Source of the DNA: an uncultured Gammaproteobacteria bacterium
GTDB lineage: Bacteria > Patescibacteriota > Patescibacteriia > UBA9934
NCBI GenBank assembly: GCA_964552565.1
Contig: CAZKGL010000001.1
Coordinates: 435,061-499,060, forward strand
Length of the DNA: 64,000 nucleotides
Direction of reading: 5' to 3'
This document shows positions 7,503 through 58,538 of the stretch, one piece after another (the stretch's first letter is position 1; each line of letters starts with the position of its first letter). The translations under genes and the position numbers were made by a program. The notes beneath the pieces were generated by a model. It was not told where the DNA came from, made no database searches, and saw only the letters and a program-made list of their open reading frames with translations.

Positions 7503-7568
7503 ACCGCCTCCATGCTACCGCACTCCACGCCATCGTTCCACAGGACTCCTGCCCTTCTGCGCTGTGCT

Positions 7569-7577
7569 TGCTATACT
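7569..7577 (+). promoter_or_regulatory. Extended -10 promoter element TGCTATACT upstream of the first BNR surface protein gene
   Basis: TGNTATACT motif 24 nt upstream of the ATG; the same motif recurs upstream of several other genes in the window. Confidence 0.45.
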
Positions 7578-7600
7578 TTCCCCAAACTTATCTTTTGCGT

Positions 7601-10081: not shown

Positions 10082-10109
10082 GGTGTCAGCTAATTTTCTG
10101 ACTTGCGCT

Positions 10110-12521
10110 ATGCGCCATTTGCTTCCCTTCCGCATCGCTTCGATAGGAGCGCTGCTTGTTGCGTCATGGTTCTTCAGTCACTCGGCCCTTGCGGGCTGGT
10201 ACACGCCCACGTCGGGCACGACCGCATCCCTCTACGACATCGACTACTACAGCGGCTACGTCGTTGCGGTGGGCTCGGGCGGGACAATCCGCTTTTCCGT
10301 CGATGCCGGACATTCGTGGTCAACGAGCACGAGCGGCACCACGTCGGCGCTGTACGCAGTCGATTCGGATAGCGGCTATGTCCTCGCCGTCGGCTATGGC
10401 GGCGTCATTCTGCGATCGACCAACTACGGCGCGACATGGACTGCCGTCACGAGCGGCACCACCGCGTCGTTGTACGACGTCATGATGAATCCCTACGGCC
10501 GGGCGTTCGCCGTCGGCTATGGCGGCGTACTCCTCACCTCAACGGACTACGGCGCGACATGGAGCGCACAGACTTCTGGTACGACGAACACGCTCCAGGC
10601 GGTTGACATTTGGGGCACCACCCGCGCCTACGCCGTCGGTTCGAGCGGCACCATCTTGTACTGGAACGGGACGACATGGAGCGCACAAACGTCCGGGACA
10701 ACGGAGACGCTGTACGGTGTCGCGATGTCCGGGACAACGGAAGCCTGGGTGGTGGGCTCCGGCGGCGTGGTACGGAAAACGACCGATGGCACGACGTGGA
10801 GCAGCGTCACGACGATTACCGGCCAAACGCTCTACAGTATCGAGATGTCGTCGAGCACGGCGGGCGGCATCATGGCAAAGACCGGCTTGTACGAAACCAC
10901 GAACGGAACGACATGGGCGGCAGCGTCGACCGGCAGCTGGTCGAGCGTATCCTGGGTGCTGAACGTCGATTACGGCACGATCCGTTTTGCCGTGGGCGCG
11001 AGCGGGAATATCCGTCGCTATGACCACTACGGCCCGGCTGTGGGTGCAGTAACACCGACGACTGCGCTCGAGGGCGTCCCGGTCACCTTCAGCGTTGACG
11101 CGACGGATGAAGCGGTCGTGACCCGATGCGATATCGAAATCCTTTCGGGTGACGGCAGCGGCGTCGTCCTGGACGGCGTGGACAGCGAAGATGACAGCTG
11201 GACGGCAAGCTATACGCTGAGTGCCGGCACCTACACGACCCAAGCGACGTGTTACGATCCGGCCTATAACTTTACGATGGGCGCAAGCAGCACCCTGACC
11301 GTCTCTGCGCCGGCGGACACGACCGAGCCCACTGTCGGGTCGCTCATCGTCGTCGAGGACGCCGTCGGGTCGCCGAGCGTATTCACGGTTTCGGCGTCGG
11401 ACGACGTCGGCATCGACTTCTGCACGCTCGTCATCTTGGAGGGCGACCTCGGCAGTGCGGGATTCCGCATGGCCATCCCGGCGTACGCCACCGCGGACAT
11501 GACCGGATCGGATGGTGCGTACACGGCAACATACACCTTTACTGCGGCAGGCGATTACACGGCATACGCGTACTGCCGCGATGCGGCGGGAAACCAGGCG
11601 AACACCGCGGATGCCATCTTTACGATTGACGCCGCGGCTGCGGCATCGGATACCGACGACACCGCGCCGACCATCGGGACGCCTTCCCCGACGAGCTTCA
11701 CGCTCGGCACCTCGCGCACGGTCACGGCGACTGTCAGCGACGACGTCGGCATCGAGAGCTGCGACCTCTTCATTGACGCTGAGAACGCCGGACTCATGAC
11801 GGTGAGCGGCGGGACAGCGAGCAAGTCCTACACCTTCTCGACAAACGACTGGGCCGACGGCGATACGGCGACGGTGACGGTGGAATGCGCAGACGAGGCC
11901 GGCAACTTCGACAGTACGTCGGTCGTCGTCACGCTCAGCGAGGCGGCGGTCGCGGATGAAGAAACGACAACGGAAGAAGAAACCGCGACGGATGAAGAAA
12001 CGGTAACCGTCGAAGAAGACCTGACAAACGAGGACGGCGACGCAGAGGCAGGCATGCTCATCAAACTCGCCTGCAGCGAAGGCGCGGACGTCAATGACCC
12101 GTGCAAAGCGGTCTACTTCTACAGCGAGTACGACGGCAAGCGCCACGCGTTCCCGAATGAGAAGGTCTACTTTACCTGGTACGCGAACTTCGACGAGGTC
12201 GCGGTCGTGAGCGACGAGTTCATGGCATCCCTCACCTTGGGACGCAACATCACGTACCGCCCCGGCACCCGCATGGTGAAGTTCATTACCGTCAACACGG
12301 TCTACGCGGTGACCCGAGGCGGCGTGCTGCGTCCCATCGACAGCGAGGAAACGGCCATCGCCCTCTACGGCGCGACGTGGAACCAGCAGATCGACGACAT
12401 CTCCGACGCGTTCTACGGCAACTATAGCTTCGGTGACGAAGTGACGAGCGGCGATGACTACGACGCGGAGACTGAGGAAGACGCCATCACCACGATCGAC
12501 GCCAACCTCCAGTGGCAGTAA
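10110..12521 (+). CDS. Paralogous large secreted/surface protein with BNR-like repeats, Ig-like repeats, an acidic linker and the same conserved C-terminal domain
   Basis: Signal peptide (MRHLLPFRIASIGALLVASWFFSHSALA); repeated TW-containing propeller-like motifs (SVDAGHSWSTSTSGTT, TNYGATWTAVTSGTT, TDYGATWSAQTSGTT, TDGTTWSSV); C-terminal domain GMLIKLACSEGADVNDPCKAVYFY...GTRMVKFITVNTVYAV...WNQQIDDISDAFYGNY shared with the first paralog. ATG at 10110; the listed ORF begins at an upstream GTG. Confidence 0.75.
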   Translation: MRHLLPFRIASIGALLVASWFFSHSALAGWYTPTSGTTASLYDIDYYSGYVVAVGSGGTIRFSVDAGHSWSTSTSGTTSALYAVDSDSGYVLAVGYGGVILRSTNYGATWTAVTSGTTASLYDVMMNPYGRAFAVGYGGVLLTSTDYGATWSAQTSGTTNTLQAVDIWGTTRAYAVGSSGTILYWNGTTWSAQTSGTTETLYGVAMSGTTEAWVVGSGGVVRKTTDGTTWSSVTTITGQTLYSIEMSSSTAGGIMAKTGLYETTNGTTWAAASTGSWSSVSWVLNVDYGTIRFAVGASGNIRRYDHYGPAVGAVTPTTALEGVPVTFSVDATDEAVVTRCDIEILSGDGSGVVLDGVDSEDDSWTASYTLSAGTYTTQATCYDPAYNFTMGASSTLTVSAPADTTEPTVGSLIVVEDAVGSPSVFTVSASDDVGIDFCTLVILEGDLGSAGFRMAIPAYATADMTGSDGAYTATYTFTAAGDYTAYAYCRDAAGNQANTADAIFTIDAAAAASDTDDTAPTIGTPSPTSFTLGTSRTVTATVSDDVGIESCDLFIDAENAGLMTVSGGTASKSYTFSTNDWADGDTATVTVECADEAGNFDSTSVVVTLSEAAVADEETTTEEETATDEETVTVEEDLTNEDGDAEAGMLIKLACSEGADVNDPCKAVYFYSEYDGKRHAFPNEKVYFTWYANFDEVAVVSDEFMASLTLGRNITYRPGTRMVKFITVNTVYAVTRGGVLRPIDSEETAIALYGATWNQQIDDISDAFYGNYSFGDEVTSGDDYDAETEEDAITTIDANLQWQ

Positions 12522-14724: not shown

Positions 14725-14801
14725 TGGTCGGGCTGAACGGACTTGAACCGTCGACCTCTTGCACCCCATGCAAGCGCGCTAGCCAACTGCGCCACAGCCC
14801 G
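14725..14801 (-). tRNA. tRNA-Pro, anticodon GGG
   Basis: Manual fold: acceptor CGGGCTG/CAGCCCG, D-stem GCGC, anticodon stem CTTGC/GCAAG with loop AUGGGGU (GGG, G37), T-arm GACGG-TTCAAGT-CCGTC, encoded CCA. Confidence 0.8.
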
Positions 14802-14802
14802 C

Positions 14803-14890
14803 TGGCGGAAGGAGAGGGATTCGAACCCTCGATACCTTGCGGTATACACGCTTTCCAAGCGTGCGCACTAGGCCACTATGCGATCCTTCC
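14803..14890 (-). tRNA. tRNA-Ser, anticodon GGA (class II, long variable arm)
   Basis: Manual fold: acceptor GGAAGGA/TCCTTCC, anticodon stem CACGC/GCGTG with loop UUGGAAA, variable arm ATACC-GCAA-GGTAT, T-arm GAGGG-TTCGAAT-CCCTC, encoded CCA; ends 1 nt before tRNA-Pro(GGG). Confidence 0.8.
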
Positions 14891-14918
14891 AAGCGGCGAA
14901 AGAGTACCCCATTTCCGA

Positions 14919-14952
14919 TCCTTGATCAATTGGGCAATATAGAGTAGTATTT
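14919..14952. promoter_or_regulatory. Putative promoter region in the divergent spacer between the minus-strand tRNAs and plus-strand tRNA-Pro(CGG)
   Basis: TTGATC-17 nt-TAGTAT on the + strand about 40 nt upstream of tRNA-Pro(CGG); weak consensus match, unverified. Confidence 0.3.
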
Positions 14953-14994
14953 TCGCACCCGAGAACAGCACCTCAGTCGGTATCCGGCACATGC

Positions 14995-15070
14995 CGGGTC
15001 GTAGCTCAGTAGGTAGAGCGCTACGTTCGGGTCGTAGAGGCCGTGGGTTCGAGTCCCGCCGGCCCGACCA
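14995..15070 (+). tRNA. tRNA-Pro, anticodon CGG
   Basis: Manual fold: acceptor CGGGTCG/CGGCCCG (one G-U pair), D-arm GCTC-AGTAGGTA-GAGC, anticodon stem CTACG/CGTAG with loop UUCGGGU (CGG, G37), T-arm GTGGG-TTCGAGT-CCCGC, encoded CCA. Confidence 0.8.
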
Positions 15071-39828: not shown

Positions 39829-40638
39829 CTACGCGGTCAAGCGATCCGCAAACACGGTGAGGAGCAGCAGGCCGAACGCAATGCGATACAGCGCAAACAC
39901 ACCGAACCCCGTCTTGCGGATGATAAAAAACAACAAGCGGATGGCAATGACGCCAAAGATGAGCGCGGAGGCGAAACCGATACCGAGCATGCCCCATGCG
40001 AGGTCTGTCGCCCCGGCATCGACAACATCCCACGCCGTCTTAGCGCCTGCGCCAACGATGGCGGGTATTGCGAGGAGGAAGGAAAAGCGCGCCGCCTGCC
40101 CGCGGTCCATGCCGGAGAACAAGCCGATGGTCATGGTCGCGCCCGACCGCGAGGTGCCCGGGATGAGCGCGAAAGCTTGCGCGACGCCAACGGCAACCGC
40201 CTGGCCCCACGTGACATCGTGGACGCGACGCGCGTCGATGGTGCGCTTCTTTGGGACGTAGTCGGCAATGCCAAGCAGGATGCCCCACGCAATGAGCATT
40301 GCCGCGACGACCGGCAGCGTGCGCACTGCGTCCATCATGCTGCCGAGCGCGGCGCCGACGATGACCGCCGGGATGGTCGCCACGAGCAGCTTCACTGCCA
40401 ACGACCGGTCGGCCCGGACCCTTTCGCGGATGCCCTTCACGAGGGCGCCGATTTCGCGGCGCATGGCGATGACGATGGCGAGCAGCGTCGCAAGGTGGAC
40501 CGCCACATCGAACACCAACCCTTGCGCCTCCCAACCGAAGAGCGCCGGAATCGCAAGAAGGTGGCCGGAGCTCGAAATGGGGAGGAACTCGGTGAGGCCC
40601 TGGACCGCGCCAAGCACTGCCGCCTCAAGGAACGTCAT
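39829..40638 (-). CDS. uppP: Undecaprenyl-diphosphate phosphatase
   Basis: UppP/BacA signature (GAVQGLTEFLPISSSGHL...PGTSRSGATM) with 8 TM helices; its start overlaps the stop of the upstream ATPase gene (ATGA). Confidence 0.85.
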   Translation of the reverse strand: MTFLEAAVLGAVQGLTEFLPISSSGHLLAIPALFGWEAQGLVFDVAVHLATLLAIVIAMRREIGALVKGIRERVRADRSLAVKLLVATIPAVIVGAALGSMMDAVRTLPVVAAMLIAWGILLGIADYVPKKRTIDARRVHDVTWGQAVAVGVAQAFALIPGTSRSGATMTIGLFSGMDRGQAARFSFLLAIPAIVGAGAKTAWDVVDAGATDLAWGMLGIGFASALIFGVIAIRLLFFIIRKTGFGVFALYRIAFGLLLLTVFADRLTA

Positions 40639-42530
40639 AGCTCTTCGTCAAACGTTATGCGCTCGCCGGGCATGACCTGCTGCGGCGCGGCGGCTGGCGC
40701 GTCCCCGCCGTTCCCGCGGTTGCGGCGTCGGCGTCGGCGTTTGCGGCCAACCACCCCCGAGCCCCCTCCATCAATGGAGGGGGACCCGGTTCCCTCTTGG
40801 CTACCCCCATTCATGGGGGCGAGGGGGTTGAGCATGTCGCCTGCACGTGGTGCGGCGTCGTCGTGCGCCGGGACGGGTTTCGGCGGTGACGCCTCGGGTT
40901 TCTTTACGGGGGAAAGTGCGGACAACGACATGCTTTCGCCCGCCTCCCGCGCAACAGGCTCACCGTCATGCACCTTCGGCGCCGGCCCGGACTCCTTGCC
41001 CTTCTGGCGTACCTCCTTCTTTTCCTTCCCCTTCTTCCGCTCCTCCATCACGATGGGGTGGCACTCTTCACAGTAAATCGGGCGCGACCGGTCAAGCTCC
41101 ACCGGCAACAAAAACTTCTTCCCGCAGCGGGTGCAGTCATACTCGTGGCTGTACCGCTTCTTTTTGTCCTCCTTCTTTTGCGCCGCGACCGCGGCGAGCG
41201 CTCCGGCCACGTCGACGTTCGGGTCAAACCCCGCCCACGTCGCGACGTGCTCTTCAATCTGCGCCTTGTTGCCGGCGTACCGTTCGCGCGACTGCGCGAT
41301 GACCCGCTCCGCGCTGCCCGTGCGCTGGGCGATGGGCGGCAGCGTCTGCGCCGAAAACGGATGGCTCGTCACGCCGTCAATCATGAGTTTGACGTAGATG
41401 GCGTGCTTCGGGAGGTTGATGATGTCTTCCGGCGTGAACCGCGGCATGAGCTCGTTCTCGAGGAAGACGGCGTCCGGCGAGCCGACGCGGAAGAACACCA
41501 TGCTGCCGACGTTGCCGAACACTGCGTCCCGCACCGCAGTCGACGTCCCCTGCTCGAGCTGGGCGATGTACTGGTGCGCCATGATGAGGTTGAGCCGGTA
41601 CTTGCGCGCTTCAGAGAGCACGCTTGCGAACGATTCGACGGCAAAGTTCTGGAATTCGTCGACGTACAGGTAGAAATCGTTCCGCTCGGACTCCGGGACA
41701 TTCACGCGCTCCATGGCCGACATCTGGATCTTCGTGATGAGCATGCCGCCGAGGAGGCGCATCGCATCTTCACCGACGCGCCCCTTGGAGAGGTTGATGA
41801 TGAAAATCTTCTGGCTGTCCATGATGTCGCGGATGTTGATGGACGACTTCGCCTGCGCGACGATGTTGCGAATGACCGACGACGACAAGAATTGGCCGAT
41901 CTTGTTTTGGATCGGCGCAACCGCCTCGGTCGCGAATTTCGCATCATATTGGGCGAACTCCTGCAGCCAGAACTGTTTGACGATCGGGTCGGTGACGTTC
42001 GTGATGATCTGCGCGCGGTAGTCCTTATCCGACAGCATGCGATTGATGCCGAGCAGCGTGGATCCCGACGTGTCGAGGAGCGCAAGGATGGTGTTATTCA
42101 AAATGTACTCCATGCGCGCCGACCACACGTTCTCCCAGATCTTTTTGAACACCGACATGAGGCTCGACGCGACGAGGTGCTTCATGGTCGGATCCACCGA
42201 CTCGAGGATGTTGAAGCCGATCGGGTAGTCGAGGTCCGACGGATTGAAATACACGACGTCGTTGATGCGCCAGGACGGGATGTAATCGATCAGCTTTTCC
42301 GCGGTGTCGCCGTGCGGATCGACATAACAACACCCGTGGCCGGCGTAGATGTCGGCCAGGATCATGTTCTCGAGCAGCGTCGTCTTGCCCATGCCGGTCT
42401 TTCCGATGACGTACATGTGCCGGCGGCGGTCGTCGGTCTTGACGCCGAACTTGCGCATCGCATTCCGGAAGTTGGTCTTGCCGAAATAGATGACGTCGCT
42501 CTCGTGGTCATGTTCGTAACGCATTGGCAT
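40635..42530 (-). CDS. FtsK/HerA/TraG-superfamily P-loop ATPase resembling type IV coupling proteins (TraD/VirD4-like), soluble, with a C-terminal zinc ribbon and basic tail
   Basis: Walker A VIGKTGMGKTT, YVDPHGD (like the DPKG motif of TraD/VirD4), Walker B FYLYVDEFQNF, Zn ribbon YDCTRCGKKF...IYCEECH, Arg-rich tail; contains an in-frame family-1 repeat. Confidence 0.65.
   Translation of the reverse strand: MPMRYEHDHESDVIYFGKTNFRNAMRKFGVKTDDRRRHMYVIGKTGMGKTTLLENMILADIYAGHGCCYVDPHGDTAEKLIDYIPSWRINDVVYFNPSDLDYPIGFNILESVDPTMKHLVASSLMSVFKKIWENVWSARMEYILNNTILALLDTSGSTLLGINRMLSDKDYRAQIITNVTDPIVKQFWLQEFAQYDAKFATEAVAPIQNKIGQFLSSSVIRNIVAQAKSSINIRDIMDSQKIFIINLSKGRVGEDAMRLLGGMLITKIQMSAMERVNVPESERNDFYLYVDEFQNFAVESFASVLSEARKYRLNLIMAHQYIAQLEQGTSTAVRDAVFGNVGSMVFFRVGSPDAVFLENELMPRFTPEDIINLPKHAIYVKLMIDGVTSHPFSAQTLPPIAQRTGSAERVIAQSRERYAGNKAQIEEHVATWAGFDPNVDVAGALAAVAAQKKEDKKKRYSHEYDCTRCGKKFLLPVELDRSRPIYCEECHPIVMEERKKGKEKKEVRQKGKESGPAPKVHDGEPVAREAGESMSLSALSPVKKPEASPPKPVPAHDDAAPRAGDMLNPLAPMNGGSQEGTGSPSIDGGGSGVVGRKRRRRRRNRGNGGDAPAAAPQQVMPGERITFDEEL
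40752..40828. repeat. GC-rich double-hairpin repeat (family 1, in-frame copy within the T4CP-like ATPase gene)
   Basis: Near-identical to 36552-36628; encodes PLAPMNGGSQEGTGSPSIDGGGSGVV in the C-terminal tail. Confidence 0.7.
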
Positions 42531-42538
42531 AGCGCAAA

Positions 42539-44170
42539 CTACAGCACGGGCAAATTCCCCGGCGCGTCGTCGTCATCACTGATCGGTTCTGCGGCAAGGT
42601 TCAGGCCCGGCGGAAGCGGCGCAGGTTTGCCTGGTTGCGGGACGAACTCGGCGTGCGCAGGGGCGGCATGCGCCGGCGCAGCGGCGTGGGCCGGAGCACG
42701 GGCCGGGGCACCGCCGGTCGGCGCATGCGGCGTCGGGACGGATAACACCCCCGCCTCTTCTTCGCCGACCCCGTACTCCCCGCCCTTCTCCTTCATGAGT
42801 TCCTTCCAGTCCGGGAGATCCGGCGCATCGTCGTCCGCGAACGGCAATGCGAGCGGCGCTTCTGCGCGGCGGGCGCCCGACGTGGCGAGAATCGGGGTCC
42901 GGGCGTCGGCCGGCGGGAAGTGGAACAGCGACGCAAGTTCCTCCGAGTTCAGAATGTACGGCGGCGCGCCGGCACCAAGCTGGCGGCCCTTGTAGCGCTT
43001 CACCAGCCGCGTCATGCGCGCAAAAATCTGCCACTCCAACCAGAAGTAGTCGTCCTTCGGCGTGGCCGGGTCGTGCATGCCGAACTTGTTCATGTTCAGG
43101 TGCGCGAACGGATGGAACATGCCCTTGATGACCGACGCAATGAGCGGCTTGCGGTACGTCTCGTGCACCGCGCAGTACACCACGCGGATCTTTGTATACC
43201 ACCCGAGCTTGCTGATCTTCTCCGCAATGGCGTCCGAAACACTGCGCTCGGTCGGCGTCATCTTGAACATGCGGAAATCGTCCGCCTTCTTCTCTTCGTG
43301 GCCGCCCTCGCCCATAAGGTCCAGCCCGGCGGTCTGCTTCAGCACCTCGTTCGGCAACCAAGCAACGCCGCCCATGATCTGCGACGTCATGCTCGGCGCG
43401 TGCTTCTCCTCCTTGCCCATGAGCTTGTTGAGGTACTTCTCGCCCTCCTTCGCCCAGTCCTGTTCGTCCGGCTGTTGGATGATGATCTGCACCCACAAGT
43501 GCTCGCCCTTCTGCATCTTGCCCATGATCTCGATGACGTTGAGGAGCGGATCCTTAAACCGCATGTCCTTTTCGCCAAGATGCTCAAAATCCGCGTACGT
43601 ACGGATCGGGTAGAACATCGGCTTGCTGAGCTTCATTTCGCTGCCGAAGACGAGGTGCGTGTCGTTCGGATACTTGTCCGGGATGCGGTCGACGTAGTCC
43701 TCGACCTCCATGATCTGCGCCTCGGGGTACTGTGCGTAGAGCGCGGCCTCGACAAGATCGCGGTATTTCTCCGGCGTACGGATGTAGAACTTCACGTCGC
43801 CTTCGCTGCCCACGATCTCGAAGCTGAAAAATGCCTGGAACTTGCCGAGAAGATGCGCCTCCTTCCACGTAATCGCCGACTTTGAGCCCGCGATGTTGTT
43901 GAAGAAGTTCTCCATGCCCTTCGGCGTGTTGATGGCGCCTTGGGGGATGCTGATGTTGAGGAGCACCCAGTCGATATGCGCAAGGTACTGCCCTTGCTTG
44001 TAGTCGACCCATACTTCCGTGAAGCCCCAGATGAGGACGCCGAAAATAGGGATCCACCCGAACACGAGCAGTGCGTGCGACGCCATCTCGAAGACCGGCG
44101 TGGTCGCGATGTAGTGATCGACGGCCGGTGGCAGGTTGAATGCGATGCCGAGCATAATTGCTCGCATCAT
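42539..44170 (-). CDS. Membrane protein partner of the T4CP-like ATPase (N-terminal TM helices plus a large soluble domain and a Pro/Ala-rich acidic tail)
   Basis: ATG at 44168-44170 (the listed ORF starts at an upstream TTG); TM segments (IMLGIAFNLPP, HALLVFGWIPIFGVLIWGF); ends 8 nt before the ATPase gene. Confidence 0.55.
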   Translation of the reverse strand: MMRAIMLGIAFNLPPAVDHYIATTPVFEMASHALLVFGWIPIFGVLIWGFTEVWVDYKQGQYLAHIDWVLLNISIPQGAINTPKGMENFFNNIAGSKSAITWKEAHLLGKFQAFFSFEIVGSEGDVKFYIRTPEKYRDLVEAALYAQYPEAQIMEVEDYVDRIPDKYPNDTHLVFGSEMKLSKPMFYPIRTYADFEHLGEKDMRFKDPLLNVIEIMGKMQKGEHLWVQIIIQQPDEQDWAKEGEKYLNKLMGKEEKHAPSMTSQIMGGVAWLPNEVLKQTAGLDLMGEGGHEEKKADDFRMFKMTPTERSVSDAIAEKISKLGWYTKIRVVYCAVHETYRKPLIASVIKGMFHPFAHLNMNKFGMHDPATPKDDYFWLEWQIFARMTRLVKRYKGRQLGAGAPPYILNSEELASLFHFPPADARTPILATSGARRAEAPLALPFADDDAPDLPDWKELMKEKGGEYGVGEEEAGVLSVPTPHAPTGGAPARAPAHAAAPAHAAPAHAEFVPQPGKPAPLPPGLNLAAEPISDDDDAPGNLPVL

Positions 44171-44246
44171 AACACAAACACACCTTGCTGTGGAAACACA
44201 CAAAAAACCATCCCGCGCACTGCCGCGCAGGACGGTTTCTTGTTCG

Positions 44247-45153: not shown

Positions 45154-47175
45154 TTATTTGATGCCCAGGAAGAACAGCCGCTTGCGCAACGCCTGCGACC
45201 GGCTCACCGCGATGAGCAGCGAGCGCACGAGGACCAGCGCGCAGAAGAGCGAGACGAAGATACCGATCATGAGCGTCAGCGCGAATCCCTTGATGAAGCT
45301 CGTGCCCATCGTGAAGAGGATGAACGTCGCGATGAGCGTCGTCGTGTTGCCGTCGCGGATCGACGGCGTCGCGCGCAGGACCGCCTCCTCAACCGCGGTC
45401 GGCAGGTCGCGCCCGCTCCAGAGCTCTTCCTTCAAGCGCTCGAAGATCAGCACGTTTGCGTCCACCGCGATGCCGACCGAGAGCACGAAGCCCGCGATGC
45501 CCGACAACGTCACCGTGACGCCGAACACCTTGTACAGCGCGAGGTTGATGGCGCTGTAGACGAGGAGCGCGATGACGGCAAGGAAGCCCGGAAGGCGGTA
45601 GTACAGAATGAGGAATGCCGTAATGAGGGCGAACGCGATGAGGCCTGCCGTGATGCTCGCCTCAAGCGACGCCTGGCCGAGCGTCGGGCCGATCGTCTGC
45701 TGCGTGATGACCGAGATCGGCACCGGGAGCGCGCCGGCGTTCAGGCGCTGCGCAGTCTCCTTCGCCTCGACGACCGTGAACTGGCCGGTGATCTGCGCTT
45801 CGCCGCCGTAGATCGCCTGTTGCACGACCGGCGTCGTGACCGGCTCCCCGTCGAGGAAGATGCCGATGACCTGGCCGATGTTCGCTTCGGTGAGGTCCGC
45901 AAACAACTCCGCGCCCTCGCTGTTGAACGAGAGGAGGATGTACGGGGCGCCGGTGTTCGGGTCGAACGCGACCGAGGCGCTCTTCACATGCTTGCCCGAA
46001 AGCGCGGTGTTCTCCCACGGGTCGGCGTCGATGATGTCGGAGAGCGTCGTCCACGGCATCTCGACGTGCGCGAGTTCGTACGTCTTCACGGATTCGGAGC
46101 GCTCGCGGTAGATGAGGTGGTAGCCGAACTCCGTTTCGACCACGTCGGAGACCGTGCCGTCCTCCATGGCGAAGAGGGTGTCCTCAAACGACTGCACCAT
46201 CATTCCTTTGGTGACGGTGCCGAGGTCGCCTCCGGTGGAATTCGCGCCCGGCTCGTCCGAATTTGCCTTGGCGAGGTCGGTGAAGTTTTCCGTCGTCGCT
46301 TCCGTCTTGAGGCCGTCGATGAGGGCGCGCGCCTCTTCCTTGGAGCGCGTCTCGCCGCAGCGGGTCGCGCCGGCGTAACAAATGAGGATATGCGACGCAT
46401 CGACTTCCTCTTCGGCGCCCGTCCCCATGAAGTCGACGATGTGCATGCTCGACGCGCTCTCGTACAGGCCGTCAACGACGCCGGTGCGGCGGCCGAGGTC
46501 CTTCACGAGGTCCCCAAACACCTCGTCGTCCTCGCGGACCATGCCAAGGTAGCCGCCGGTGTCCTTGGTCGCGGTATCGATGGAAAATTCCGTCGCGAGG
46601 GCGGCGAAGTCCTCGCCGTCGAGCGCGCGGTCGAGCACCGCAAGCGCGGCGTCGCGCTCCGACTCCTGCGCAGCGTCAATCTGCGCCTGCTGCTCGGGCG
46701 TTGCCTCGGTCGGAACGTCCGCGGTTGGGGTTTTGAACTCCAGAACCGGCGTCTCGCCGATGATGCGCGTCGCTTCGGTCGCGTCCTGGATGCCCGGGAG
46801 CTCGATGATGACGCGGTAGTGCCCGTCGGCGATCGTCGTTTCCACGCGCGATTCGCTGACGCCGAGCGCGTTGGCGCGGCGTTCGATGACGTCGCGGACG
46901 CCTTCGAGCGCATCGGCGCGGTCGGCCTCCGGGATGGCGGACATGTCCGCCTCGTAGACGAGGTGCACGCCGCCGGAGAGGTCGAGGCCGAGGGTGAAGT
47001 CGGTGTCCGGGAACGTCGGCAGCGCAAACCCGATCTTCTCGCGGATCGCGGCCATGGCGTTATTCCACGGCGTCGGGAAGGCGGTGAAGCCGGCAAAGAA
47101 CAAGATTGCAAGTACCAGAGCCACGCGCAGCACACTCTGACGAGTGGAGCGCGCCATAATCGGTCGCAAAGGCAT
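45154..47175 (-). CDS. secD: Protein translocase subunit SecD with two parvulin-type PPIase domains in its periplasmic head region
   Basis: SecD N-terminal motif LGLDLSGGVHLVYEAD, P1-base and TM2-6 core; between them two parvulin signatures (GEDFAALATEFS...GGYLG...HIV and HILICYAG...FTDLAKANSDEPGANSTGGDLGTVTKGMMVQSFEDTLF...ETEFGYHLIY). Confidence 0.85.
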   Translation of the reverse strand: MPLRPIMARSTRQSVLRVALVLAILFFAGFTAFPTPWNNAMAAIREKIGFALPTFPDTDFTLGLDLSGGVHLVYEADMSAIPEADRADALEGVRDVIERRANALGVSESRVETTIADGHYRVIIELPGIQDATEATRIIGETPVLEFKTPTADVPTEATPEQQAQIDAAQESERDAALAVLDRALDGEDFAALATEFSIDTATKDTGGYLGMVREDDEVFGDLVKDLGRRTGVVDGLYESASSMHIVDFMGTGAEEEVDASHILICYAGATRCGETRSKEEARALIDGLKTEATTENFTDLAKANSDEPGANSTGGDLGTVTKGMMVQSFEDTLFAMEDGTVSDVVETEFGYHLIYRERSESVKTYELAHVEMPWTTLSDIIDADPWENTALSGKHVKSASVAFDPNTGAPYILLSFNSEGAELFADLTEANIGQVIGIFLDGEPVTTPVVQQAIYGGEAQITGQFTVVEAKETAQRLNAGALPVPISVITQQTIGPTLGQASLEASITAGLIAFALITAFLILYYRLPGFLAVIALLVYSAINLALYKVFGVTVTLSGIAGFVLSVGIAVDANVLIFERLKEELWSGRDLPTAVEEAVLRATPSIRDGNTTTLIATFILFTMGTSFIKGFALTLMIGIFVSLFCALVLVRSLLIAVSRSQALRKRLFFLGIK

Positions 47176-47258
47176 AGTGGCCGCATTCTAAGCCAAATGG
47201 CATGTCTCTACAAGCCGCGTCGGCGCGAAGCTATACACAGCCGAAAAAGACGGAACGA

Positions 47259-47267
47259 TGCTATACT
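47259..47267 (+). promoter_or_regulatory. Extended -10 element TGCTATACT upstream of the 47291 gene
   Basis: Motif lies 24 nt upstream of ATG 47291; the listed ORF start (47258) lies inside or at this promoter, so 47291 is preferred. Confidence 0.45.
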
Positions 47268-47290
47268 TGGTGCAACGTTTTTACATCCTT

Positions 47291-49339
47291 ATGGGAAAGA
47301 AAGGAACAACGGTCGAAGGTGGGCTCGCCGGGCTTGGCGCAGCCATTGAAGCACAGGGGAAGCAGGCGGCCGCACCGGCGCCCGAGGCGGCTCCGGCAAA
47401 AGCGCCGGCGGCAAAGGCGGAAAAAAAACCCGCGCAACCTCCCGCGCCGAAAAAGAAGGCAGCCCCAGCGCCCGCACCGGCGTCGGAAGTCAAAAAGGCT
47501 GCTCCGCGCTCCGCGCGCCAGGAACGGCAGGCCAGTGCGACGACGCCGCAACGGGTGGAAACTGCGCCCGAGGCGGCACGGCGCGTGATGCGCGAAGCTC
47601 AAGAACTGCGTGACCGTGAGTATAGGGATGCAACCGCGCTCTTTGAGGAAACGCGTGCGGGAATCCAGGAAATCGATGGCGGCGACCCTCGCATCCAAAA
47701 GCTCCCTGAAACGAAGGCGCTCCGTGCCAAACTCTTCAAGGCAAACGAAGGGGCGCTGCGCGAGATGACGCAGTATGAGTACCACATGCTCTTGCCCGAC
47801 CTCGCGGCCGAGCTTCAGCGTATTGATGCGGCACGTGCGGGTAACATGGAAGATGAGGATTTGAAACGGCGTGCACACGAAGTCAATGAGCTCATTAACG
47901 ACATCGACGATCGGGCGGCGCAGTTCAAGATTGGTGAGTACGCGGTAAAGAAGGAGAAAAAGGCCGCGGCTCCAACGGAAGTCGCCCCGGAACCTGCGCC
48001 AAAGGCCGAGGTGGCTCCGGCGCCCGCTGAACCCAAGGTCGAAGAACTCGACACGGATACGCTCATCGCCAAGGAGCGCGAGCGGCGCGAAGCGGAGATT
48101 ACGGCCGCGCAGGCCGAGCTCGCAGGCATTGAACCCGACATCGCGAAGCTGAGCGCCATCCCGAAGCGCGAACGCACGCTTGCCATGCAGCAGCGGCTCG
48201 ACCAGCTTGAAGCGCGGTCGTTGGAATTGAAGAAGGCGTTGCCGGCTGCAGAGGCGGTCGTGGAACAAACCCCAGACCTCGGTCCGGAAGCGAAGAAGTA
48301 TCTCGGCGCCATCGAAAAGGTCCGCAAGAGCGCAACAGGCCTGCGCGAATTGAGCGAAGGTTTCTTGAACGAAAAGGCCGCGGTCGTCGCCGCGAACGCG
48401 GAGATCGCACGCAACCATGAAACAGTCGAGGCGACGTTCACCGCGCTGCGCGACGATATCAATGAGAAGCTGAAGGCGCTGCCAGACTACATGAAAGACG
48501 CCCTCTCCGCGGCGGTCGGCAGCAAGCGTGCACCGAAGGATGCTGGGCAGCTGACAAAGCTGAAAATGTGGTTCGATGCCTGGAAGGGCAAAGTGAAGCC
48601 GGGTTTCTGGAGAAAAAACTTCGGTGACTGGGATTACGAGAAGATCCAGGAGCTGGAGGCGATGGCCGAGGATCCGCGCATTGCGGAAATGGAGGCCCTG
48701 GAACAGCAGAACGACGAGATCCGCCTCCGCGGCGTATCGAGCGAACAGGAGCAGCATCGGTACATTACGAAGATCGAGGAGTACGCCTCCGCGATGGCGA
48801 ACGAAGTCCCCGCCGTTCCTGAGGGGCTCACAAAGGATGAACAGGCCGCAATAAAGGCGACGTTCGACGAGATCAACCGCGAGATGAACCTCGTGAAGCT
48901 CCCTTCCGAAGTCAGCCGAGCGGCGTCACGCAACGTCGAAAAGTTCTTCAAGAACATGGGCCATGAACGCGACCTCGCCAGCGGGAAGATGACGCCAGAG
49001 CAGGCGCGCGAAAAGAAGGCGGCAGAGCACGTCCCGGAGGTCATGAAGCTGTCGGAAGATGTCGATATCGAGTTCCGGCTCCTCGACTTGGCCAAGAGCT
49101 ACGGCAGCGCGCTGCAGGGAATGAAAAAGGAATCCCCGCATTACGCGGAAACCTGGGCGAAGAAGCATGCCCTCGAATTCCTCGCGCATCGCAAGTACGT
49201 CGCAAAAGGATTCTTCATGGCAGACATCCAAAAAGCGGCAAAACGCGACCTCGGCGCCGAACTCGACCGTGCGACCATCGAGGAAGCCTGGGCGCACGCC
49301 TTCCAGATCAACCGCGACACCGCGCTTGCCGCGGCGTAA
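47291..49339 (+). CDS. Hypothetical large protein (~682 aa) with an Ala/Pro/Lys-rich low-complexity N-terminus and long predicted coiled-coil regions
   Basis: AAPAPEAAPAKAPAAKAEKKPAQPPAPKKKAAPAPAPA then heptad-like charged helices; no family recognised. Confidence 0.55.
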   Translation: MGKKGTTVEGGLAGLGAAIEAQGKQAAAPAPEAAPAKAPAAKAEKKPAQPPAPKKKAAPAPAPASEVKKAAPRSARQERQASATTPQRVETAPEAARRVMREAQELRDREYRDATALFEETRAGIQEIDGGDPRIQKLPETKALRAKLFKANEGALREMTQYEYHMLLPDLAAELQRIDAARAGNMEDEDLKRRAHEVNELINDIDDRAAQFKIGEYAVKKEKKAAAPTEVAPEPAPKAEVAPAPAEPKVEELDTDTLIAKERERREAEITAAQAELAGIEPDIAKLSAIPKRERTLAMQQRLDQLEARSLELKKALPAAEAVVEQTPDLGPEAKKYLGAIEKVRKSATGLRELSEGFLNEKAAVVAANAEIARNHETVEATFTALRDDINEKLKALPDYMKDALSAAVGSKRAPKDAGQLTKLKMWFDAWKGKVKPGFWRKNFGDWDYEKIQELEAMAEDPRIAEMEALEQQNDEIRLRGVSSEQEQHRYITKIEEYASAMANEVPAVPEGLTKDEQAAIKATFDEINREMNLVKLPSEVSRAASRNVEKFFKNMGHERDLASGKMTPEQAREKKAAEHVPEVMKLSEDVDIEFRLLDLAKSYGSALQGMKKESPHYAETWAKKHALEFLAHRKYVAKGFFMADIQKAAKRDLGAELDRATIEEAWAHAFQINRDTALAAA

Positions 49340-55704: not shown

Positions 55705-58464
55705 CTAGGCGCCGTGGCATTTCTTGTACTTTTTCCCGGACCCACACGGGCAGGGGTCGTTGCGGCCGACATTATCGAACTTCTTTTCATCCGATGATGG
55801 CGTGGTTTGTGTGACGACCGTTGTCGCGGTCGATGCGTTCTTGGCTGCGCCGCTCATTTGCATGCCCTTGATGACCTGCGGCGCCAAGTCGATCAGCTTC
55901 TTCGTCGCGACCGCCTGGTCGAGGAGCTTAAAGAGGTTGTAGGCGACCTCGTGCTGTACCTCGTCCTGCATCGCGTTATACAAACGGAACGACTCATGCT
56001 TGTACTCGACAAGCGGGTCGCGCTGGGCGTAACCGCGCAGGCCGATGGTGTGGCGCAGGTACGTCATCTCGTCCAAATGACGCATCCAATGGCTGTCCAT
56101 GGCGCGCAAAAGGACGGTGCGTGCGATACGTTGTACCTGTTCCTGGCCGCCGAAGGTTTCCACCGTCGCATCGTACTTCGCATTCAAGTATCCCATCATC
56201 CGTTCGATGACCGCGCTGCGCTGCGCTGCCAACTTCTCCTTGTCGCGCGACAGCGACGGCAGGTCGGTACGGATGGCGGCCTTCGTTGCATCATCAAGCG
56301 GCACAATAGTGTGCAGCGTCTCGATAATTTCCTTCGGGTCCCAATCGCCCGCCTGTTTCTTGTCCGTAAAGTCGTCCGGGATGTCGGTATCGACGCCGGT
56401 GTGGAAAAGGACCACGCGCTCAAGCTCGCGCTCTACCATGCCCATGACTTCGGTGTGCGCAAACGCCAAATCGCCCTGCAAGAGCCGTCGGCGGCGTTCA
56501 TAGGTCGCAAGACGGTGCTTGTTGAGCACATCGTCATACTCAAGGACGTGCTTGCGGGTGTCGTAGTTGTGCCCTTCCACGCGCTGCTGCGCCTTCTCGA
56601 GCGCACTCGTGATCATCTTGCTTTCGATCGGGGTCGTGTCGTCAAAGCCGAGCTTGTCCATCATCCCCTTCACGCGGTTGCTGCCGAAAATGCGCATGAG
56701 GTCGTCGTCGAGCGACACGAAGAACTGCGTCGTGCCCGGGTCGCCCTGGCGCCCAGCGCGGCCGCGCAGCTGGTTATCGATGCGACGCGACTCATGGCGC
56801 TCCGTACCAATCACGCACAGGCCGCCAAGCGCGCGGATCTCCTCTGCCTCGTTCGCGTCCGGCGGGTTGCCGCCGAGGATGATGTCCACGCCGCGGCCGG
56901 CCATGTTCGTCGCGACGGTCACCGCACCCTTGCGGCCGGCCTGCGCGATAATCTCCGCTTCACGTTCGTGGTGCTTCGCGTTCAGGAGTTCGTGGCGGAC
57001 GCCGGCCATGCGCAACAGTTCGCTCAAGCGCTCGTTCTTGTCGACAGAAATGGTACCGATAAGCACCGGCTGCCCCTTTTCCTGAAGCGCCTTCACCTCT
57101 TTGACGATGGCGAGGAACTTGCCGTTCTCCGTCTTGTAGATGCGGTCCGGCAGGTCGACGCGCGCGTTCGTCTTGTTGGTCGGGATCTGCACGACCTCGA
57201 GGTTGTACGTCTTTGCAAACTCCTCAGCCTCGGTCGCCGCGGTACCGGTCATGCCGGCGAGCTTCGTGTAGAGGCGGAAGTAATTTTGGTAGGTAATCGT
57301 CGCGAGCGTGCGGCTTTCGCGCTGGATTTTGACGCCCTCCTTCGCCTCGATCGCCTGGTGCAAGCCTTCGCTGTAGCGGCGGCCTTCCATGACGCGGCCC
57401 GTGAACTCGTCGACGATCATCACCTCGCCGTCGCGGACGATGTAGTCGCGGTCGCGCAAAAACAGCGCATGCGCTTTCAGCGCCTGCTCGGCGTGGTGGA
57501 CCATCTCAAGGCCGCCCTGCTCGTACAAGTTGTCGATGCCAAGCGCCTTCTCTACCTTCTGCAACCCGGTCTCGGTGAAGGTCGACGAGCGCATCTTTTC
57601 GTCGATGTTGTAGTCCTCGCCCTCCTTCAGGCCGCGGACGATGTCGGCAAACCGGTAGTACGTGTCCGCGGACTCCGCAGCCGGCGCACTGATGATGAGC
57701 GGCGTGCGCGCCTCGTCAATAAGGATGGAGTCGACCTCGTCGACGATGGCGTAGTGCAGTTCGCGCTGCACCATGTGCGCCGCGTCCTGCGCCATGTTGT
57801 CGCGCAAATAATCAAACCCGTACTCGTTGTTCGTGCCGTAGGTAATGTCGCAGGCGTAGGCATCCTTGCGGCTGCCCGGACGGAGATAGTCCATCTGCAC
57901 GCGGAACGAGCTCGTTGACGCCTTCGCTTCGCCTTCTTCCGCCGTCTCCGGCACCGGCGCCTTGTACGCCGCATCAAAGACATAGCCGCTCTCGTGCTGG
58001 ATGCAGCCGACCGTCAGGCCTAAAAACCCGAACACGCGGCCCATCCAGACGGCGTCGCGCTTGGCGAGGTAGTCGTTGACCGTGACGACGTGGACGCCTT
58101 TGCCGGCGAGGGCGTTGAGGTACGTCGGCGCCACGGCGGTGAGCGTCTTCCCTTCACCGGTACGCATTTCCGAAATCTGCCCGCGATGGAGTGCGAGGCC
58201 GCCCATGAGCTGGACGTCGTACTGGCGCTGGCCGAGCGCGCGCTTGGACGCTTCCCGGACCACGGCAAACGCCTCGAACGCCAGGTCGTCGATAGCCGCG
58301 CCGTCCGCGAGGCGCTGCATGAATTCTGCGGTCTTCGCCTTCAGTTGGTCGTCCGTCAACGCCGCGATGGCGGGTTCAAACGCATTGATGGCGTCGACGT
58401 CGGCACGCAGCTGTTTGAGGACCTTTTCGTTGGGATCGCCGAAGATTTTGGAGAGGAAGGACAT
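55705..58464 (-). CDS. secA: Preprotein translocase ATPase SecA
   Basis: DEAD-like motor motifs, preprotein-binding domain, C-terminal zinc-binding tail CPCGSGKKYKKCHG; probable start MSFLSKIFGDPNEK at 58462-58464. Confidence 0.9.
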   Translation of the reverse strand: MSFLSKIFGDPNEKVLKQLRADVDAINAFEPAIAALTDDQLKAKTAEFMQRLADGAAIDDLAFEAFAVVREASKRALGQRQYDVQLMGGLALHRGQISEMRTGEGKTLTAVAPTYLNALAGKGVHVVTVNDYLAKRDAVWMGRVFGFLGLTVGCIQHESGYVFDAAYKAPVPETAEEGEAKASTSSFRVQMDYLRPGSRKDAYACDITYGTNNEYGFDYLRDNMAQDAAHMVQRELHYAIVDEVDSILIDEARTPLIISAPAAESADTYYRFADIVRGLKEGEDYNIDEKMRSSTFTETGLQKVEKALGIDNLYEQGGLEMVHHAEQALKAHALFLRDRDYIVRDGEVMIVDEFTGRVMEGRRYSEGLHQAIEAKEGVKIQRESRTLATITYQNYFRLYTKLAGMTGTAATEAEEFAKTYNLEVVQIPTNKTNARVDLPDRIYKTENGKFLAIVKEVKALQEKGQPVLIGTISVDKNERLSELLRMAGVRHELLNAKHHEREAEIIAQAGRKGAVTVATNMAGRGVDIILGGNPPDANEAEEIRALGGLCVIGTERHESRRIDNQLRGRAGRQGDPGTTQFFVSLDDDLMRIFGSNRVKGMMDKLGFDDTTPIESKMITSALEKAQQRVEGHNYDTRKHVLEYDDVLNKHRLATYERRRRLLQGDLAFAHTEVMGMVERELERVVLFHTGVDTDIPDDFTDKKQAGDWDPKEIIETLHTIVPLDDATKAAIRTDLPSLSRDKEKLAAQRSAVIERMMGYLNAKYDATVETFGGQEQVQRIARTVLLRAMDSHWMRHLDEMTYLRHTIGLRGYAQRDPLVEYKHESFRLYNAMQDEVQHEVAYNLFKLLDQAVATKKLIDLAPQVIKGMQMSGAAKNASTATTVVTQTTPSSDEKKFDNVGRNDPCPCGSGKKYKKCHGA

Positions 58465-58538
58465 AGCGTCGATTACCGCAGAAGTTTGCCCCAAAAATGG
58501 GGGTTAGGCAAGCACCAGCCGATAGAATCGACTGTTTC

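Follow-up and report, generated by a model that had tools for sequence, protein, structure and literature searches.

Apart from SecD and SecDF themselves, the closest described counterparts of the protein discussed here are extracytoplasmic parvulins. In Escherichia coli, SurA (1M5Y) is a soluble protein with an N-terminal chaperone domain, a C-terminal tail and tandem parvulins arranged as sequential, independent domains, the first diverged and the second competent, with an S-x-D-P-G-S...GGDLG loop; PpiD, which acts with YfgM, is a protein in its own right that crosses the membrane once, sits where SecYEG opens into the periplasm and has chaperone domains and an inactive parvulin. In bacteria without an outer membrane, PrsA of Bacillus and Staphylococcus and Mpn444/Mpn436 of Mycoplasma are membrane-tethered parvulin foldases, lipoproteins with an N/C chaperone domain that form dimers or trimers. 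Partnerships with SecD have been reported for several of these proteins: in the holotranslocon, SurA attaches to SecDF at its periplasmic domains (PMC9987972), PpiD contacts SecD's periplasmic domain and works together with SecDF at a late stage of translocation (PMC9643414), and the parvulin lipoprotein Mpn444 cross-links to SecD (bioRxiv 10.1101/2024.09.05.611430). The evidence for chaperone recruitment to the Sec exit, and for SecDF cooperation with PpiD and SurA, has so far come from cross-linking, low-resolution electron microscopy and AlphaFold models (PMC9643414; PMC9987972). Here we analyze a 64-kb stretch of an Uhrbacteria-like (Patescibacteria) genome, hereafter the window, and confirm that the SecD it encodes carries two parvulin-type prolyl-isomerase domains in its outward-facing domain, as had been proposed from the letters of the DNA in an earlier, sequence-only reading. 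Nucleotide positions are those of the window, and residue numbers those of its 673-residue SecD (Table 1).

All the motifs quoted in the sequence-only reading are found in the 673-residue open reading frame (ORF): LGLDLSGGVHLV at residues 62–73, GEDFAALATEFS at 186–197, GGYLG at 207–211, HIV at 245–247, HILICYAG at 262–269, FTDLAKANSDEPGANSTGGDLG at 298–319 and ETEFGYHLIY at 347–356, the region that it delimited (positions 46108–46680) corresponding to residues 166–356. Every defining feature of SecD that can be tested on the sequence is present, and the protein is a member of the SecD family. The TIGR01129 SecD model reaches 359.9 bits (cut-off 244.4), its match being divided in two by the insert, and whole-protein Pfam searches place Sec_GG at residues 60–80 (E = 4.2e-4), SecD_1st at 92–149 (E = 3.8e-14), SecDF_P1_head at 389–485 (E = 1.3e-28) and SecD_SecF_C at 487–654 (E = 2.8e-16); the P1 base, the P1 head and the C-terminal bundle of five transmembrane (TM) helices are all there, in SecD order. 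The full-length AlphaFold2 (AF2) model, with a predicted local distance difference test score (pLDDT) of 84.8, retrieves SecDF crystal structures as its top Foldseek matches (5xan, 5xap, 5yhf and 3aqp; E from 4e-24 to 2e-19), followed by SurA. In its GG motif, P1 base, P1 head, TM2–TM6 core with a proton-pathway aspartate and SecF partner, the protein resembles Thermus thermophilus SecDF (3AQP/5YHF) and E. coli SecD. The aspartate, D572 in the GIAVDANV motif, is invariant in 67 of 67 relatives and lines up with T. thermophilus SecDF D340, which Tsukazaki et al. reportedly found in 2011 to be essential for proton transport. By analogy with the solved SecDF structures, residues up to about 490 would be extracytoplasmic.

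The insert comprises 228 residues (~152–379) and takes the place of the short segment that joins P1 base and P1 head. Residues 59–151 align with residues 32–119 of T. thermophilus SecDF (3AQP) and residues 380–661 with its residues 148–429; therefore, some 228 residues of double-parvulin module replace a connector of about 29 residues (119–148) in that protein. The module follows GETPVLEFK, the strand that closes the N-terminal part of the P1 base, of which G140, E141, T142, P143, L145 and F147 are invariant among relatives. None of the solved SecD or SecDF chains that were matched aligns over the insert, and therefore none of them contains a parvulin. The sequence-only reading had assigned the parvulins to the periplasmic head of SecD; they do lie between the GG motif and P1 base on one side and the P1 head and TM2–TM6 core on the other, but at the junction of P1 base and P1 head and not inside the head itself.

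The Pfam search that the sequence-only reading had put forward among its checks supports both parvulin domains, the second canonical and with an intact catalytic sequence, the first diverged. On the whole protein, Rotamase_3 (E = 4.7e-36, best stretch 254–355) and Rotamase (E = 5.7e-29, best stretch 262–358) each match in two stretches, well outside what chance would give. Scanned alone, the second domain (D2) reaches 94.7 bits with Rotamase_3 (gathering cut-off 22.5) and 74.9 bits with Rotamase, covering profile positions 1–96 of 97. Its AF2 secondary structure follows the β-α3-β-α-β2 parvulin fold, and in Foldseek searches an AF2 model of the insert alone (pLDDT 89.8) matches individual parvulin domains from Pin1, PrsA and SurA-P2 at target-normalized template-modelling scores (TMt) of 0.80–0.85 and root-mean-square deviations of 1.9–2.5 Å, the PrsA prolyl-isomerase (PPIase) domains matched by D2 being 2jzv and 6vj6. 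By sequence and predicted fold, D2 is thus assignable to the parvulin family. Its dual-histidine motif and the acidic residue of its S-x-[DC] loop are present as equivalents of Pin1 H59, C113 and H157, position 308 corresponding to Pin1 C113 and to the aspartate of the SurA-P2 'SQDPGS' loop; this mapping onto Pin1 and Par10 was made by motif.

Residue conservation was counted over 201 two-parvulin SecDs. H262, H353, G316 and G351 are kept in all 201, F330 in 200 and S306 in 198, and position 308 is acidic in 189 (aspartate in 158, glutamate in 31). This pattern suggests that the catalytic residues of D2 are under selection, and the domain is predicted to be catalytically competent. In the β1–α1 loop of D2, Cys266 and Cys273 occur together in 195 relatives, are both missing from six and never occur singly, and each is the top covariation partner of the other. 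They probably form a disulfide, and the co-varying pair is consistent with an extracytoplasmic location of the insert.

The first domain (D1), scanned alone, scores 37.0 bits with Rotamase_3 (cut-off 22.5), over profile positions 33–112 of 116, and 34.8 bits with Rotamase (cut-off 21.7), in a match that begins only at profile position 10 of 97. Its AF2 secondary structure agrees with parvulin topology, and hhalign relates it to D2 with 96.8% probability (E = 2e-10). The domain possesses D200, H245 and H370, and the substrate-pocket residues of its α4 helix have diverged; 171 of the 201 relatives retain D200, 154 retain H245, 142 retain H370 and 118 retain all three together. D1 does not follow the canonical strand order, in which β1 stands at the N-terminus. 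Judged from sequence and model together, it is a circularly permuted homologue of the parvulins, its β1 strand (β1′) being assigned to residues 365–374, beyond the end of D2.

Several lines of evidence point to this displaced strand. SecDs with one parvulin (~560–590 residues) run from LEF[KR] and α1 to GYHII (β4), a 12-residue loop and then 'KASHILFK', and the β1 motif thus follows β4 in these proteins; strand 365–374 is homologous in position to 'KASHILFK'. An xSHILxK or xHIL motif is found exactly 16 residues past GYHII in 89 of 98 one-parvulin SecDs, none of the 98 has a canonical β1 motif before α1, and the 'KASHILFK' strand is absent from parvulin-free SecDs, probably also of Patescibacteria, retrieved in the same homology search. 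When this strand was moved in silico to the N-terminus of one-parvulin SecDs, the start of the Rotamase match shifted from profile position 10 or 8 to position 1, and the scores rose from 88.5 to 94.3 and from 87.1 to 91.7 bits. In the AF2 model of the window protein, residues 243–265 and 351–374 form two long, sheet-forming strands (pLDDT 95–97), and strand 365–374 matches the SecD core in conservation and is better conserved than the adjacent linkers (0.73 vs 0.44). Covariation was computed as mutual information with average product correction over residues 141–392 of 201 sequences (effective number 91). Residues 370 and 245 are mutual top partners, and 372–243 and 367–209 also pair. These couplings indicate an antiparallel register of the strand with D1 β4 and contact with D1 β2 on its other flank, which matches the β3-β4-β1-β2 order of the parvulin sheet. 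H245 and H370, whose co-occurrence among the 201 relatives has an odds ratio of 10, would form the usual dual-histidine pair of D1. VLEFK (144–148), considered as D1 β1 since it sits where the SurA 'SHILI' falls in a colinear alignment, is disfavored because it is unstructured in the insert-only AF2 model (pLDDT 55–69) and present in parvulin-free SecDs, and because covariation points to 365–374.

Sequence and model hence indicate a chain that passes from the P1 base through D1 (α1 to β4), a complete D2 and the β1′ strand of D1 to the P1 head, with D2 nested in D1 and the two domains apparently joined by a two-stranded β ribbon. This order is exactly the outcome expected of a tandem duplication of a permuted single unit, and such a duplication, of a unit still present in other Patescibacteria, would be the simplest origin of the module. 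The sequence-only reading was right in the number of parvulin domains; it missed the permutation of D1 and the nesting of D2, and the β1′ strand (46054–46083) falls outside its lower coordinate.

Among the described parvulins, SurA is the best match to the insert as a whole in both sequence and fold. The insert is colinear with SurA parvulins P1 and P2 (1m5y; E about 4e-13), and SurA 1m5y is the top Foldseek match of the insert-only model (~229 columns, E = 3e-10). Like SurA, the insert carries tandem parvulins of which the first has diverged; unlike SurA, it is embedded in a membrane protein, its first parvulin is permuted and its second nested, and it has neither a C-terminal tail nor an N-terminal chaperone domain of the SurA kind, no SurA_N-type Pfam family being found in the window SecD at E ≤ 0.1. 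The window protein shares with PpiD a membrane-anchored parvulin at the Sec exit and differs from it in having its parvulins built into SecD and in the complete set of catalytic residues in D2. It shares with PrsA and Mpn444 an extracytoplasmic, membrane-tethered parvulin module, but the anchor is SecD itself: a lipobox is absent, the N-terminus is SecD TM1, and no N/C chaperone domain was detected in the Pfam scan of the window SecD. The curated models fall well below their cut-offs, at 58.6 vs 394 bits for SurA (NF008038), 41.2 vs 493 for PpiD (NF008054, parvulin region only) and 59 vs 361 and 45 vs 343 for PrsA (NF002846 and NF002827, parvulin only). Because it has neither their chaperone domains nor their anchors and does not reach these cut-offs, the window protein is not SurA, PpiD or PrsA; by analogy, it most likely works in the manner of those proteins.

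The architecture is shared by many relatives. The 120 best protein clusters (90% identity clusters, 57–80% identical to the window protein, 601–709 residues) all share the set of Rotamase and SecD Pfam domains, and their named members are Ca. Uhrbacteria or 'Patescibacteria group', annotated 'SecD' alone. A scan of one genome per species yielded 428 tblastn-confirmed relatives of the insert, and the locus analysis took in 80 retrieved from these 428 species-level candidates. These 80 match nearly the whole of the 257-residue query at 38–66% identity, one of them ending at a contig end, and the loci show the order SecD_N, parvulin, parvulin, P1 head and TM region, with secF following where the contig suffices (secD-secF order in 71 of 80, the exceptions being mostly contigs that end early). 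Conservation of the insert (0.63–0.73) compares with 0.73–0.75 for the SecD core. In a wider survey of 1.84 billion cluster representatives (50% identity), in which the best 150 were classified with custom hidden Markov models, one or more parvulins stood between SecD_1st and P1 head in about half of these 150, and Pfam agreed on ten. Two-parvulin SecDs (~665–705 residues) were seen in Ca. Uhrbacteria and one Ca. Magasanikbacteria, SecDs with one permuted parvulin (~540–600 residues) in Ca. Moranbacteria and Parcubacteria, and SecDs with a canonical parvulin and extra flanking sequence (~680–800 residues) in Ca. Peregrinibacteria; SecDF fusions with an insert (~905–1100 residues) were also found. 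Parvulin-SecD is an old and widespread trait of several Patescibacteria lineages, not a peculiarity of this genome.

Three further observations concern individual members of this set. Single-chain SecDF fusions with a parvulin insert include P0134, P0142, P0158, P0166 and P0172, among others, at 1015–1100 residues. In the Peregrinibacteria proteins P0167, P0176 and P0196 (about 780–810 residues), the canonical parvulin is preceded by ~180 and followed by ~50 residues that are helical and without a Pfam match; these flanks may represent additional parvulin units that have degenerated, or else an N/C chaperone domain like that of PrsA. Lastly, metagenome-assembled genome records such as L005–L007, L012, L015, L051 and L069, among others, encode the Uhrbacteria type of two-parvulin SecD under the titles 'uncultured Gammaproteobacteria', 'Candidatus Kapaibacterium', 'Acutalibacteraceae' and 'Candidatus Binatia', which are probably placeholder or wrong taxonomy.

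We consider it likely, with a probability of roughly 0.7, that the protein is a functional SecD, partnered with SecF, in which the extracytoplasmic P1 domain has a built-in tandem parvulin module. The conserved catalytic residues and the analogy with the parvulins described above suggest a foldase role for the insert. In such a system, a secretory chain leaving SecYEG would be engaged by the proton-driven P1 head of SecDF and bound by the attached parvulins; D2 would catalyze prolyl cis/trans isomerization of the emerging chain, and D1 would serve mainly as a scaffold or holdase, possibly with some residual activity, and as an adapter that hangs the mobile P1 head from the P1 base. The Patescibacteria concerned are not known to have an outer membrane or the β-barrel assembly machinery (BAM), and the result would be that a cell without an outer membrane has a foldase of the PrsA/PpiD kind anchored where chains leave the Sec channel. 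The reported PpiD–SecD, SurA–SecDF and Mpn444–SecD partnerships gain support from the fusion, and as non-covalent analogues they in turn speak for the proposed mechanism. Because the head would hang from the base through the permuted D1, it is also conceivable, if rather doubtful, that the swing of the P1 head under proton flow acts mechanically on the module, each cycle of the proton-motive force driving capture, isomerization and release of the chain; if true, this would amount to an energy-coupled foldase in a compartment without ATP.

A number of observations weigh against parts of this account. The score of D1 is low (37 bits), and the in silico strand move that improved the one-parvulin SecDs brought no Pfam gain for the window D1 (35.2 to 34.7 bits); what supports the permutation of D1 is therefore positional homology, together with AF2 secondary structure and covariation. 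The covariation statistics take no account of phylogeny, the predicted template-modelling score (pTM) of the whole-protein AF2 model is just 0.48, and the proposed pairing of D1 β1′, the β ribbon and the disulfide derive from secondary-structure assignments and covariation. The catalytic loop of D1 (FAALATEFSIDTATKDTGGYLG) is deleted in one Uhrbacteria subgroup (P0005 type, 665 residues) in which D2 is intact, which indicates that catalysis by D1 is dispensable. In D2 itself, position 308 of the window protein is glutamate, and the family-typical residue is aspartate. Furthermore, PPIase activity is dispensable or absent in SurA and PpiD, and conservation alone is therefore no proof that catalysis matters.

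These last points bear on the most serious alternative, in which the insert is purely a holdase or docking module, or serves to lengthen the P1 arm, and prolyl isomerization is of no physiological importance, as is the case for E. coli SurA and PpiD. The divergence of D1 and the loss of its catalytic loop in some relatives fit such a role, as does the closeness of the insert to SurA, whose chaperone function needs no PPIase activity; doubts have also been voiced about how much the parvulin domain of PpiD matters (PMC9643414). The dual histidines of D2, however, are kept in 201 of 201 relatives and S306, F330 and the acidic residue at 308 are near-invariant, which is tighter than a structural role alone needs, and the SurA_N-type chaperone domain that carries holdase activity in SurA, PpiD and PrsA was not detected in the window SecD; we regard this alternative as unlikely, if a real contender.

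A foldase might instead be reserved for a small set of abundant surface proteins, for example type IV pilins, S-layer proteins or large Ig-like/BNR proteins. Patescibacteria are known for rich pilus systems, and the window encodes large Ig-like/BNR surface proteins together with a VirD4/TraG-like ATPase, a genomic context that invites speculation of this kind. Set against this, SecD is a general component of the translocon, no gene except secF was seen linked to parvulin-SecD, and the active site of D2, as read from its sequence, lacks a basic cluster of the Pin1 type and resembles the active sites of non-specific parvulins; a dedicated module is hence improbable, and a general foldase built into SecD is preferred. 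To an assembly chimera, the concern that the sequence-only reading had itself raised, or to a decaying, non-functional insertion, we attach next to no weight: the 80 species-level genomes that were retrieved and the 120 top protein clusters, which come from independent assemblies, show this architecture without exception, which excludes misassembly, the reading frame is intact, the insert is conserved nearly like the SecD core, and no evidence in favor of either was found.

The surroundings of the locus are those of a core chromosomal region, with genes for DnaG, LigA, RecJ, LepA, a GatA-like amidase, SecA and three tRNAs in the window (Table 1). No other parvulin is encoded in the 64-kb window or within 4 kb on either side of the 80 related loci. 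That the insert might make up for a missing PpiD or PrsA, as the sequence-only reading suggested, is a conjecture about the whole genome. The two genes downstream of secF, one of them coding for the coupling ATPase, may be part of a type IV secretion-like or DNA-uptake system. The two tandem BNR/Ig-like paralogues probably function at the cell surface as large proteins, and the Sec/parvulin machinery may have them among its clients.

Table 1. Features of the parvulin-SecD locus and its neighbors in the window; residue numbers are those of the 673-residue SecD.
Feature	Positions	Strand	Evidence and remarks
secD with parvulin insert	45154-47175	-	673-aa ORF; TIGR01129, Pfam, AF2 model
TM1, with basic cytoplasmic N-terminus before it	47077-47136	-	Residues ~14-33; hydrophobic VLRVALVLAILFFAGFTAF; AF2 helix 4-32
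SecD GG motif and N-terminal P1 base, ending in strand GETPVLEFK	46726-47004	-	Residues 58-150; Sec_GG, SecD_1st
Parvulin D1 core, α1-α2-α3-β2-α4-β3-β4, without N-terminal β1	46426-46704	-	Residues 158-250
Parvulin D2, canonical order, predicted catalytic set H262, S306, E308, F330, H353	46102-46404	-	Residues 258-358
Cys266...Cys273 pair, D2 β1-α1 loop	46357-46380	-	Co-occurrence, covariation
Candidate strand β1′ (TYELAHVEMP), carrying H370, displaced D1 β1	46054-46083	-	Residues 365-374; covariation, AF2 secondary structure, positional homology
P1 head subdomain	45718-46038	-	Residues 380-486; Pfam SecDF_P1_head 389-485
TM2-TM6 core, proton-pathway Asp572 in GIAVDANVLIFER	45196-45717	-	Residues 487-660; Pfam SecD_SecF_C
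secF, 300 aa	44247-45149	-	4 nt past secD stop codon; TIGR00966 279.6 bits vs cut-off 160
554-aa ORF, hydrophobic N-terminal region, Pro/Ala/His-rich tail PAHAAAPAHAAPAHAE	42539-44203	-	First gene downstream of secF; no Pfam match
631-aa VirD4/TraG/TrwB-like coupling ATPase, treble-clef zinc finger	40635-42530	-	Second gene downstream of secF
693-aa Ala/Lys/Glu-rich ORF, coiled-coil-like	47258-49339	+	Divergent from secD, 82 bp apart; no Pfam family
SecA, 929 aa, SEC-C zinc motif	55705-58494	-	~8.5 kb from secDF
Two tandem 812-aa paralogues, BNR/YCF48-like propeller and Big_13/filamin Ig-like domains	7568-10006, 10083-12521	+	
tRNA cluster: tRNA-Pro(GGG), tRNA-Ser(GGA), tRNA-Pro(CGG)	14725-15070	-, -, +	

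Neither a SecD–parvulin fusion, which the sequence-only reading had not seen described either, nor a circularly permuted parvulin is described in the literature found by our search, the coverage of which was incomplete, with most subscription journals outside it. The 'Giant genes' preprint (bioRxiv 10.1101/2023.11.21.568195) was considered as a prior description and set aside, SecD and Rotamase_2 standing there in unrelated passages. The architecture is visible to any Pfam run on public sequences, and databases name the proteins just "SecD". The permuted, nested double parvulin may be the first natural circular permutant of the parvulin fold, and a natural permuted parvulin together with its nested tandem form would offer material for work on how proteins fold and domains evolve. 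The insert, at ~230 residues and soluble, could be expressed and assayed alone, without cultivating the organism. For the Sec system, a conserved natural fusion of parvulin and SecD represents independent evolutionary evidence for the partnership of SecDF and foldase, and it points to the junction of P1 base and P1 head as the place where the two act together. For the Patescibacteria, a very large radiation of uncultivated bacteria whose genomes are reduced, it makes parvulin-SecD the candidate for the main secretory foldase.

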